NCBI RefSeq assembly: GCF_003334315.1
Contig: NZ_QOWR01000046.1
DNA length: 38,030 bases
Direction: 5' to 3' (one strand)
Source of the DNA: Escherichia coli
Lineage (GTDB): Bacteria > Pseudomonadota > Gammaproteobacteria > Enterobacterales > Enterobacteriaceae
In this document: in pieces, positions 33,951 through 38,030 of the stretch
Layout of the letters: every line of letters starts with the position of its first letter
Position numbering within the stretch: the first letter of the stretch is position 1
Translations under genes and position numbers: made by a program
The notes under the pieces: generated by a model
Database searches by the model: none
Told to the model about the DNA's origin: nothing
Seen by the model: only the letters and a program-made list of their open reading frames with translations

Positions 33951-34152
<202 letters not shown>

Positions 34153-34160
34153 TCTCAATA

Positions 34161-36446
34161 TCAGATCTTACATGCGCCGCTTTCGCAGCCATCGTCCTGG
34201 ATTGACGGCACCAGATCGTCTTGTGCGTCTTCAGCGCCGTCACGGGTGTTCTGATAATACAGTGTTTTGACCCCGAATTTGTAGGCGGTGAGCAGGTCTT
34301 TCAGCAACTGCTGCATCGGCACTTTTCCTGACGGGAAGCGTGACGGATCGTAGTTGGTGTTGGCAGAGATCGACTGATCGATAAATTTCTGCATGATACC
34401 CACCAGTTGCAGATAACCATCGTTACCCGGCATTTCCCACAGCAGCTCATAGGCGTCGTGCAGGTGCTCGTAGTCCGGCACCACCTGGCGCAAAATACCG
34501 TCTTTCGACGCTTTGATGCTGACGTAACCGCGCGGCGGTTCAATACCGTTAGTGGCGTTAGAGATCTGCGAAGAAGTCTCGGACGGCATCAGAGCAGAAA
34601 GCGTGGAGTTACGCAGACCGTGCGTTTTGATTGACTCACGCAGAGCTTCCCAGTCGTAATGCAGCGGCTCATTAGCGATGGTATCCAGATCTTTCTTATA
34701 GGTATCGATCGGCAGGATCCCTTTCGCGTAAGTGGTTTCGTTAAACCACGGGCACGCGCCTTGCTCTTTCGCCAGCTCATTAGAGGCTTTCAGCAGGTAA
34801 TACTGAATGGCTTCGAAGGTTTTATGCGTCAGGTTGTTGGCGCTGCCGTCGGAGTAGCGTTTACCGTGCTTCGCCAGGTAGTAAGCGAAGTTGATCACAC
34901 CAATACCCAGCGTACGACGACCCATCGCTCCACGTTTGGCGGCCGGGATCGGGTAATCCTGATAATCCAGCAGCGCGTCAAGTGCACGAACCGCCAGAAT
35001 TGCCAGCTCTTCCAGTTCATCCAGGTTATTAATTGCGCCCAGGTTGAAAGCAGACAGCGTACACAGCGCGATTTCACCGTTCTCGTCGTTGACGTCGTTC
35101 AGCGGTTTGGTCGGCAGGGCTATCTCCAGGCACAGGTTAGACTGACGCACTGGCGCGATGGCCGGATCAAACGGGCTATGGGTATTGCAGTGGTCAACGT
35201 TCTGAATATAGATACGACCGGTAGACGCACGTTCCTGCATCATCAGCGAGAACAGCTCAACGGCTTTCACACGCTGCTTGCGGATGCTGTCGTCTTTCTC
35301 ATATTTGGTATACAGACGTTCAAACTCTTCCTGATCGGCGAAGAACGCGTCGTACAGCCCCGGTACGTCGGACGGGCTGAACAGGGTGATATCTTCACCT
35401 TTCAGCAGACGGGTATACATCAGTTTGTTGATTTGTACCCCGTAGTCCATATGACGCACGCGGTTGCCTTCCACACCACGGTTGTTTTTCAACACCAGCA
35501 GGCTTTCCACTTCCAGATGCCACATCGGGTAGAACAGCGTTGCCGCACCGCCGCGCACACCGCCCTGAGAGCAGGATTTCACCGCTGTCTGGAAATGTTT
35601 GTAGAACGGAATGCAGCCGGTATGGAACGCTTCACCACCGCGAATCGGGCTACCCAGCGCACGAATACGCCCGGCGTTGATGCCGATCCCGGCACGCTGG
35701 GAAACGTATTTAACAATCGCGCTGGAGGTGGCGTTGATGGAATCCAGGCTGTCACCGCACTCGATCAGTACGCAGGAGCTGAACTGACGAGTCGGGGTAC
35801 GCACGCCGGACATGATTGGCGTCGGCAGCGAAATTTTAAATGTGGAAACCGCGTCGTAAAAACGCTTCACATATTGCAGGCGCGTTTCACGCGGGTAGTT
35901 CGAGAACAAGCACGCGGCAACTAGAATATAAAGGAACTGGGCGCTCTCATAGATTTCGCCGGTCACGCGGTTCTGTACCAGATATTTGCCTTCCAGCTGC
36001 TTAACGGCAGCATAAGAGAAGGTCATATCACGGTCGTGATCGATAAAGGTGTCCATCTGCTTGAACTCTTCTTCCGTGTAGTCTTCCAGCAGATGATTAT
36101 CGTATTTGCCCATCTCGACCATTTTCACCACGTGGTCGTACAGCGCAGGCGGCTCAAACTGGCCGTAGGCTTTTTTACGCAGGTGGAAGATCGCCAGGCG
36201 CGCGGCGAGATACTGATAATCCGGCGCATCACGGGAGATCAGGTCTGCGGCAGCCTTGATAATGGTTTCGTGGATGTCAGAGGTCTTGATACCGTCATAA
36301 AACTGAATGTGGGAGCGCAGCTCGACCTGGGAAATCGAAACGTTATGCAGTCCTTCTGCCGCCCAATCCAGAACGCGATGGATTTTGTCGAGATTGATGC
36401 GCTCTGTGCTACCGTCGCGCTTTGTCACCAGCAGATTCTGATTCAT
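34161..36446 (-). CDS. nrdA: Ribonucleoside-diphosphate reductase 1 alpha subunit (class Ia R1)
   Basis: 761-aa ORF with N-terminal ATP-cone, recognised NrdA sequence. Confidence 0.95.
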
Positions 36447-36523
36447 GTATGTCGTACCTGTTTTTGGAATTCTTTCCGCAATAGTTTCATGCAGACTACC
36501 TGTAGTACGGGAAGCTGCTTAGA

Positions 36524-36570
36524 ACACTATATATAGGGGGTATGTTTGGGATTCACTGCAAGATAGTGTG
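36524..36570 (-). promoter_or_regulatory. nrdAB promoter region with two NrdR-box-like palindromes
   Basis: acactatatataggg (36524-36538) and cactgcaagatagtgtg (36554-36570), about 80-125 bp upstream of the nrdA ATG. Confidence 0.5.
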
Positions 36571-36599
36571 AAAATGACCCTCTTGCAAGTGCATAACTT

Positions 36600-36608
36600 T
36601 GTGGATAA
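36600..36608 (-). promoter_or_regulatory. DnaA box (TTATCCACA on the minus strand)
   Basis: Exact 9-mer tgtggataa on the plus strand upstream of the nrdA promoter. Confidence 0.55.
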
Positions 36609-37141
36609 CTCAGGAAGGAAAAAGTGGCTTTCGCGCACCTTAGGTCAGACAAGGTGTCCGGGAAAGTCAATGGGAAGAGAAAAATTTGTTAAAAATAACT
36701 GTTCGGCGATTTCTTGAACGGCATAATAGGTTAGATAAATTGATATAGATGGTTTATTAATCTTTTTGCTAATGATTGCAAAAATTGATCTAAGCACGAG
36801 TCATCACATAATCTGATGTATCAGTTGTGGTCAATATATAAGCGAATGTAAGAGATTGTTGATGGCGAAATGGTTGTTTTCTATTCGGTTATTGTTAAAT
36901 GCTAAGCCATTTTGTTAATTTACCTTATATTATAAGAAAATTATTCATGACTTTAATTTAGTTTAAATATAACTGATATCCCTGAAGGTTATTAACTTGA
37001 ATTATGACGCACTGATATTATTCATCAAATAATAACAAAATAGCCATTGCACCGGGTTGAACAATTTACAAAAGAAAGATATTCCATATCGTATAATGCG
37101 ATTAAATACGCCGTCTTATAGAAAATGATGGTTAGATTAAT

Positions 37142-37953
37142 ATGCGGATTATCTTTCTACGCAAGGAGTATTTATCTTTACTCCCGTCAATGATTGCATC
37201 TCTTTTCTCTGCTAACGGTGTCGCGGCGGTCACTGATTCATGCCAGGGATATGATGTCAAAGCGAGTTGTCAGGCCAGCAGGCAAAGCCTTTCAGGCATT
37301 ACGCAGGACTGGAGTATCGCTGATGGGCAATGGCTGGTTTTTTCGGATATGACCAATAACGCCAGCGGTGGGGCCGTATTTTTGCAACAAGGAGCAGAAT
37401 TTTCACTATTACCAGAAAATGAAACTGGAATGACTCTGTTTGCCAATAACACCGTTACAGGAGAATATAATAACGGCGGGGCCATATTTGCTAAAGAAAA
37501 CTCAACGCTGAATCTTACTGATGTTATTTTTTCCGGTAACGTCGCAGGCGGCTATGGTGGCGCAATTTATTCTTCTGGTACTAACGATACTGGTGCCGTC
37601 GATTTACGTGTCACTAACGCCATGTTTCGCAATAACATCGCTAATGATGGCAAAGGTGGCGCAATTTATACCATTAATAATGACGTTTATTTAAGTGATG
37701 TTATTTTTGATAACAACCAGGCATATACATCAACAAGTTACAGTGATGGCGATGGCGGGGCAATCGATGTTACCGATAATAATAGCGACAGCAAGCATCC
37801 TTCAGGTTATACGATAGTAAATAACACTGCCTTTACAAATAACACTGCCGAAGGTTATGGCGGGGCGATATATACCAATAGCGTGACGGCTCCCTATCTT
37901 ATTGATATTTCTGTTGATGACAGCTACAGCCAGAACGGAGGCGTGTTAGTCGA
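37142..37953 (+). pseudogene. yfaL: Autotransporter adhesin YfaL/EhaC-like, N-terminal passenger fragment, interrupted at about codon 270 by an IS element
   Basis: Open frame from ATG 37142 (MRIIFLRKEYLSLLPSMIASLFSANG...) with repeated GGAIY/NNTA beta-helix motifs; the frame is not in the ORF track because it has no stop in the window; character changes abruptly at 37954. Confidence 0.7.
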
Positions 37954-38030
37954 TGGATTGGCCCCTATATTTCCATACACTTTTTATCACTTAACCCATT
38001 ACTGGTTCGCCGCCGCAGATATTCCCGTGG
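37954..38030 (-). mobile_element. Terminal inverted repeat and transposase 3' end of an IS2-group (IS3 family) insertion sequence, extending beyond the window
   Basis: tggattggcccctatatttcca...ttatcacttaacccattac...gccgcagatattcccgtgg resembles the IS2 end as I recall it (TGGATTTGCCCCTATATTTCCAGACA...); similar but not identical. Confidence 0.6.
37965..38030 (-). CDS. IS2-like transposase (OrfB / InsD-like) C-terminal end, 5' truncated by window edge
   Basis: Minus-strand translation ...PREYLRRRTSNGLSDKKCMEI* versus IS2 InsD C-terminus ...[21 protein letters not shown] (from memory). Confidence 0.55.
   Translation of the reverse strand, partial: PREYLRRRTSNGLSDKKCMEI

Follow-up and report, generated by a model that had tools for sequence, protein, structure and literature searches.

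An ISEc36/ISEc27-type insertion sequence end interrupts the chromosomal autotransporter gene yfaL in an Escherichia coli strain

Introduction

At the right end of a stretch of 38,030 nt from Escherichia coli (assembly GCF_003334315.1, contig NZ_QOWR01000046.1; the whole stretch is called the window hereafter), the reading frame of the autotransporter gene yfaL gives way over the last nucleotides to sequence of another kind. This raises the questions of which element has entered the gene, by which route the two were joined and what remains of the gene product. The sequence-only reading of this locus had proposed an interruption of yfaL at 37954 by a diverged IS2-group element, possibly a distinct member of that group, with loss of the translocator domain of the adhesin. 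In the interpretation that we favor, with a probability of about 0.85, a copy of ISEc36/ISEc27 transposed into codon 271 of chromosomal yfaL in an otherwise ordinary E. coli strain. The identity of the gene and of the element are considered first, followed by their junction, the competing explanations and the consequences for the protein.

The interrupted gene

Direct reading of the window places the yfaL start codon ATG at 37142-37144. The 5' fragment of this gene for the AIDA-I family autotransporter adhesin YfaL/EhaC occupies positions 37142-37953 on the plus strand, that is codons 1-270 and two further nucleotides, and codon 271 (GAT, Asp) receives its last base from the first base of the insertion sequence (IS), which leaves the residue unchanged. 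All 271 encoded residues are identical to residues 1-271 of the intact 1250-aa YfaL of strain HS30-1 (271/271), and at the nucleotide level the fragment is 99.9% identical to annotated yfaL. NCBIfam model NF007285, which describes this adhesin family in 1250 profile positions, aligns with the 271-aa fragment at positions 1-271; the score is 590 bits against a cut-off of 1459 bits and falls short only because the protein is truncated. The gene order at the right end of the window (nrdB, nrdA, ypaB, yfaL) is that of close relatives, where ubiG and gyrA follow. By sequence equivalence and by its position beside nrdAB-ypaB the gene belongs to YfaL/EhaC, and the window is a segment of the E. coli chromosome.

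A repeat-rich beta-helix passenger frame had been described from 37142 onward. The repeat search bears this out, with four 21-nt units coding for GG.GGAIY, spaced 99-105 nt apart at 37550-37873 on the plus strand and accompanied by matches to the TIGR01376 POMP_repeat model.

yfaL is present in 5,426 of the 5,426 complete E. coli genomes, and in 5,415 of them a single stretch accounts for at least 80% of the gene; the near-identical relatives of the window, whose yfaL the sequence-only reading had wished to see compared, carry it intact. Among 60 evenly sampled rows, yfaL is a single uninterrupted full-length piece in 58, while in one of the remaining two the gene is split once without any extra sequence and the other shows 25% coverage only. 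yfaL is thus a nearly always intact core gene.

The inserted element

The last 77 nt of the window (37954-38030, minus strand) are the right, IRR-side end of an IS of ISEc36/ISEc27 type (IS3 family, IS2 group) lying antisense to yfaL and continuing past the window end. In a homology search of the kind that had been suggested, these nucleotides matched copies annotated as ISEc36 and as ISEc27 without a single mismatch (0/77, 100% identity, E = 8e-31); the E. coli records concerned bear the product name 'IS3-like element ISEc36 family transposase' or its ISEc27 counterpart, and the identical 77-nt end occurs in at least 21 records of complete E. coli genomes. Translated on the minus strand, 37954-38030 gives PREYLRRRTSNGLSDKKCMEI followed by a stop, exactly as previously written out, and OrfB of the ISEc36 copy (301 aa) ends in precisely these residues. 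The 3' end of the transposase gene orfB thus lies at 37965-38030 (minus strand) and comprises the final 21 codons together with the stop codon at 37965-37967. The imperfect terminal inverted repeat (IRR), delimited by alignment of both ends of the reference copy, extends from the terminal TG over about 41-42 nt (37954-37995, minus strand). The visible end, beginning with TG, has the sequence of the IRR of the reference copy, whose two ends pair with each other. From the terminal TG through the IRR to the final 21 orfB codons and their stop, the visible part shows no difference from ISEc36/ISEc27.

Three complete elements served for comparison: an ISEc36-labelled copy on an mcr-1 plasmid (L003:2501-3831), an ISEc27-labelled copy of strain BEN2908 (L004:2501-3830) and IS2 of MG1655 (L005). 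The ISEc36 and ISEc27 reference copies measure 1330-1331 bp. The ISEc36 copy (1331 bp) starts with TGGATTGG and ends in ...CCAGTCTA. Its terminal inverted repeats are imperfect in the way that those of IS2 are, and it possesses a AAAAAAAG slippery site (A7G), a 121-aa OrfA and a 301-aa OrfB. It shares with IS2 of K-12 (insC/insD) the length of 1331 bp, the gene layout, the imperfect inverted repeats of about 41 nt and the 5-bp target duplication. Judged by the NCBIfam cut-offs, the reference OrfA qualifies as 'IS2 repressor TnpA' and the reference OrfB as 'IS2 transposase TnpB' (602 bits, cut-off 597); OrfB scores above the threshold of the IS3-family transposase model NF033516 as well (208 bits, cut-off 160).

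Isoforms of one IS in ISfinder share roughly 90% DNA identity. By such a criterion of about 90% or more the element is of ISEc36/ISEc27 type, as judged on the visible 6% of its length (77 nt). IS2 proper was considered and set aside: the 77 nt differ from IS2 of MG1655 (K-12) at 11 positions (66/77, 85.7% identity), and over whole elements IS2 is 80.9% identical to the ISEc36 copy and 87.3% to the ISEc27 copy, under the criterion of about 90%, whereas ISEc36 and ISEc27 are 93.2% identical to each other. The earlier estimate of roughly 80-85% identity to IS2 was therefore close, and the proposal of a distinct IS2-group member was right in separating the element from IS2 (0/77 versus 11/77 mismatches); the element is ISEc36/ISEc27, an already named and routinely annotated member of the IS2 group and not a new kind. 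That the end belongs to IS2 itself or to an unnamed relative has a negligible probability, in spite of its IS2-like appearance and of a reference OrfB that is 82% identical to IS2 InsD and passes the TnpB cut-off, given the perfect match to the named elements, the E. coli records with the identical end and 201 plasmid records at 99% or more to the reference; a truly unnamed member would presuppose strong divergence in the part past the window end.

Since ISEc36- and ISEc27-labelled copies share this end exactly, the 77 nt cannot tell ISEc36 from ISEc27. The copies bearing the two labels have the same 77-nt right end, differ by 7% overall and also differ around the left end; their sequences suggest that they may be mosaic elements. 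PGAP labels are inconsistent as well, the name ISEc27 being given to plasmid copies that match the ISEc36 reference at 99.5-99.6% identity. In the chromosomes of strains LH85-a and BEN2908 the ISEc27 copy lies inside another integrase-core (IS) gene fragment, beside IS66 accessory genes and IS1, so that several insertion sequences are nested there close to a gene for a LacI-family regulator.

The junction between yfaL and the element

A megablast search with positions 37143-37960 against the 5,426 complete E. coli genomes found a yfaL match in 5,425 of them, and the best alignments all end at query base 813, which is window position 37955. A longer query of 24,925 nt (13031-37955, about 25 kb) aligned at about 100% identity to the closest genomes and ended at the same base. 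At the site, intact yfaL reads ...gtcga|tgagaacaatagc and the window ...gtcga|TGGATTGGCCCC; in longer context, intact genes read ...GGCGTGTTAGTCGA|TGAGAACAATAGC against ...GGCGTGTTAGTCGA|TGGATTGGCCCCTATATTTCC in the window. Comparison with complete IS copies assigns the first IS base to 37954, and the TG common to intact yfaL and to the IS end accounts for the ambiguity between 37953 and 37955 in the stop of homology. The interruption at 37954 that had been read from the letters is thereby confirmed, with the best yfaL alignments stopping and the IS terminus beginning at the same place.

The junction sits exactly at the terminal TG of the right inverted repeat of the element, and such an exact-terminus junction is the signature of real transposition and not of misassembly. 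An assembly chimera, in which the read path of yfaL would have been joined to an IS from elsewhere while the true yfaL remained intact, could draw on two observations. The window stops in a repeat after 77 nt, a typical de Bruijn k-mer overlap, and the junction is unmatched in every collection consulted: a 131-nt query across it reached at least 80% coverage in none of the 5,426 complete E. coli genomes (0/5,426), the exact 32-nt junction is absent from JGI metagenome contigs, and exact-sequence look-ups of the 296-aa contig-end product and of two predicted 329-aa fusion proteins found none on record. Against it stands the position of the join at the first base (TG) of the terminal inverted repeat, which random chance would produce about once in 1,331, and we consider a chimera very improbable. 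The same searches indicate that the insertion is private to the strain, or to a lineage without a complete genome. As relatives whose yfaL is intact match the flanking DNA at about 100% identity, the insertion event is presumably recent.

Insertion or rearrangement

Members of the IS3 family move by a copy-out/paste-in pathway through a circular intermediate, and those of the IS2 group generate a 5-bp target duplication. Both sampled reference copies with clean flanks have such direct repeats, AGAAT at the ISEc36 copy (L003) and GTAAT at IS2 of MG1655 (L005). For the transposition that we favor, the target site is predicted to be GTCGA at 37949-37953 (strand not applicable), with a second copy expected past the far IS end if the insertion was simple. 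The inserted element would then be full length, about 1331 bp, with its transposase antisense to yfaL and with the predicted GTCGA duplication on either side, and the remaining 2.9 kb of yfaL (TGAGAACAATAGC...) would resume after the far IS end, about 1.33 kb from 37954. The far junction of a simple insertion would accordingly be expected to read ...CAGGGGGCCAGTCTA + GTCGA + TGAGAACAATAGCGCAGC; this predicted arrangement (IS left end, GTCGA, yfaL) was absent from JGI metagenome contigs.

One of the two IS ends lies inside the window, and it is from this end that we infer a simple insertion. A rearrangement, either recombination between IS copies or an adjacent deletion or inversion, might instead have detached the 3' part of yfaL or deleted it. 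The location of the far IS end beyond the window leaves room for it, and so does the left end of the window, where an IS1 end is joined to the inside of elaB and elaD-rbn-elaA are not adjacent, which makes it plausible that insertion sequences have mediated rearrangements or deletions in this genome. No finding argues directly against a rearrangement. Simple insertion is, however, the commonest outcome for the IS3 family, and both reference copies with clean flanks show 5-bp duplications; we regard a rearrangement as unlikely though deserving more weight than any other alternative. For yfaL the effect is the same under either scenario, namely a truncated product devoid of its barrel.

Consequences for YfaL

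In intact YfaL the beta-barrel (TIGR01414) comprises residues 807-1250. The yfaL frame is left after residue 271 and a C-terminal beta-barrel translocator in the same frame is absent, which agrees with the loss of the translocator domain announced from the sequence. Provided that the IS agrees with either of the reference copies, the predicted fusion ORF consists of 271 YfaL residues and 58 IS-encoded ones (329 aa). The truncated product would lack residues 272-1250 (78% of the protein), barrel included, and would keep the signal peptide.

A type V autotransporter without its barrel cannot reach the cell surface. Because the barrel is lost and autotransporters of this type need it, a null allele is predicted: yfaL should be a pseudogene here and the adhesin should be non-functional. 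In this respect the locus resembles IS-disrupted adhesin pseudogenes of E. coli and Shigella such as truncated cah/Ag43, in which translocator and surface display are likewise lost; a nonsense-truncated cah allele has been described (PMC4321836). It differs from the truncated cah/Ag43 alleles in that the gene affected is yfaL, disrupted at codon 271 by an IS, and the allele is unmatched among the 5,426 complete E. coli genomes. Over-expression of YfaL promotes biofilm formation and adhesion (summarised in PMC4321836). YfaL is a cryptic, accessory adhesin, and a strong phenotype is not expected from its loss. The case is one of ordinary strain-specific knockout of a non-essential adhesin gene by a known IS, and its value is chiefly for annotation, in that yfaL can be recorded as a pseudogene and the end of the contig as that of an ISEc36/ISEc27 element, with little beyond.

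Distribution of ISEc36/ISEc27 and its arrival in the chromosome

In a plasmid collection, 201 records contain the element at 99% identity or more to the reference copy and 951 at 95-99%, and the genera among the top matches listed are Escherichia, Klebsiella, Enterobacter, Citrobacter, Serratia and Leclercia. ISEc36/ISEc27 is common on Enterobacteriaceae plasmids. Among complete E. coli genomes the element is uncommon, with 28 records at 99% or more, compared with thousands carrying IS2. The two names occur in 62 papers, mostly for plasmid neighbors of mcr-10 or blaIMI, and the first identification of ISEc36 is placed in E. coli W635, a carrier of blaIMI-2 (PMC9769640). The position of the element in a chromosomal core gene suggests that it came from a plasmid and is active in the strain.

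A broader reading would take the locus as a case of IS expansion, in which plasmid-borne, resistance-associated ISEc36/27 would colonise and erode chromosomal core genes; the element, lying antisense to yfaL, could in addition drive read-through transcription towards the divergent nrdAB promoter region. We find this improbable, as the two private IS junctions of the window fully fit ordinary strain-level IS turnover. A promoter and terminator scan of 36400-38030 returned consensus-level matches only, which are uninformative on read-through.

Window ends and other features

Both ends of the window lie in insertion sequences (1-390 and 37954-38030), which fits a contig bounded by repeats, and the right overhang measures exactly 77 nt. 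A k-mer of 77 is a commonly used maximum in assembly. The window probably ends 77 nt into the IS as a short-read contig broken at a multi-copy repeat and, if this is correct, the genome would hold more than one copy of each IS.

At the left end, positions 1-390 are the last 390 nt of IS1, 97.4% identical to IS1B in strain EC590 and ending in ...GTTGGAGTCATTACC. At 391 this IS1 end meets elaB at an internal position some 108 nt from the beginning of the gene, and elaD-rbn-elaA and the start of elaB are not adjacent. This junction occurs in 0 of the 5,426 complete E. coli genomes and could stem from an insertion or from an IS1-mediated deletion.

Over 13031-37955, the alignments to several genomes that are otherwise about 100% identical are split in two and extend over about 777 nt more than the window does; the additional sequence, which has no counterpart in the window, probably represents an insertion the size of IS1. 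Finally, positions 34034-34104 on the plus strand match Rfam naRNA4 (RF02564) at 76.4 bits, above the gathering score of 59.5; the match lies in the REP-rich intergenic region between nrdA and nrdB, where nearby ORF translations are REP-like.
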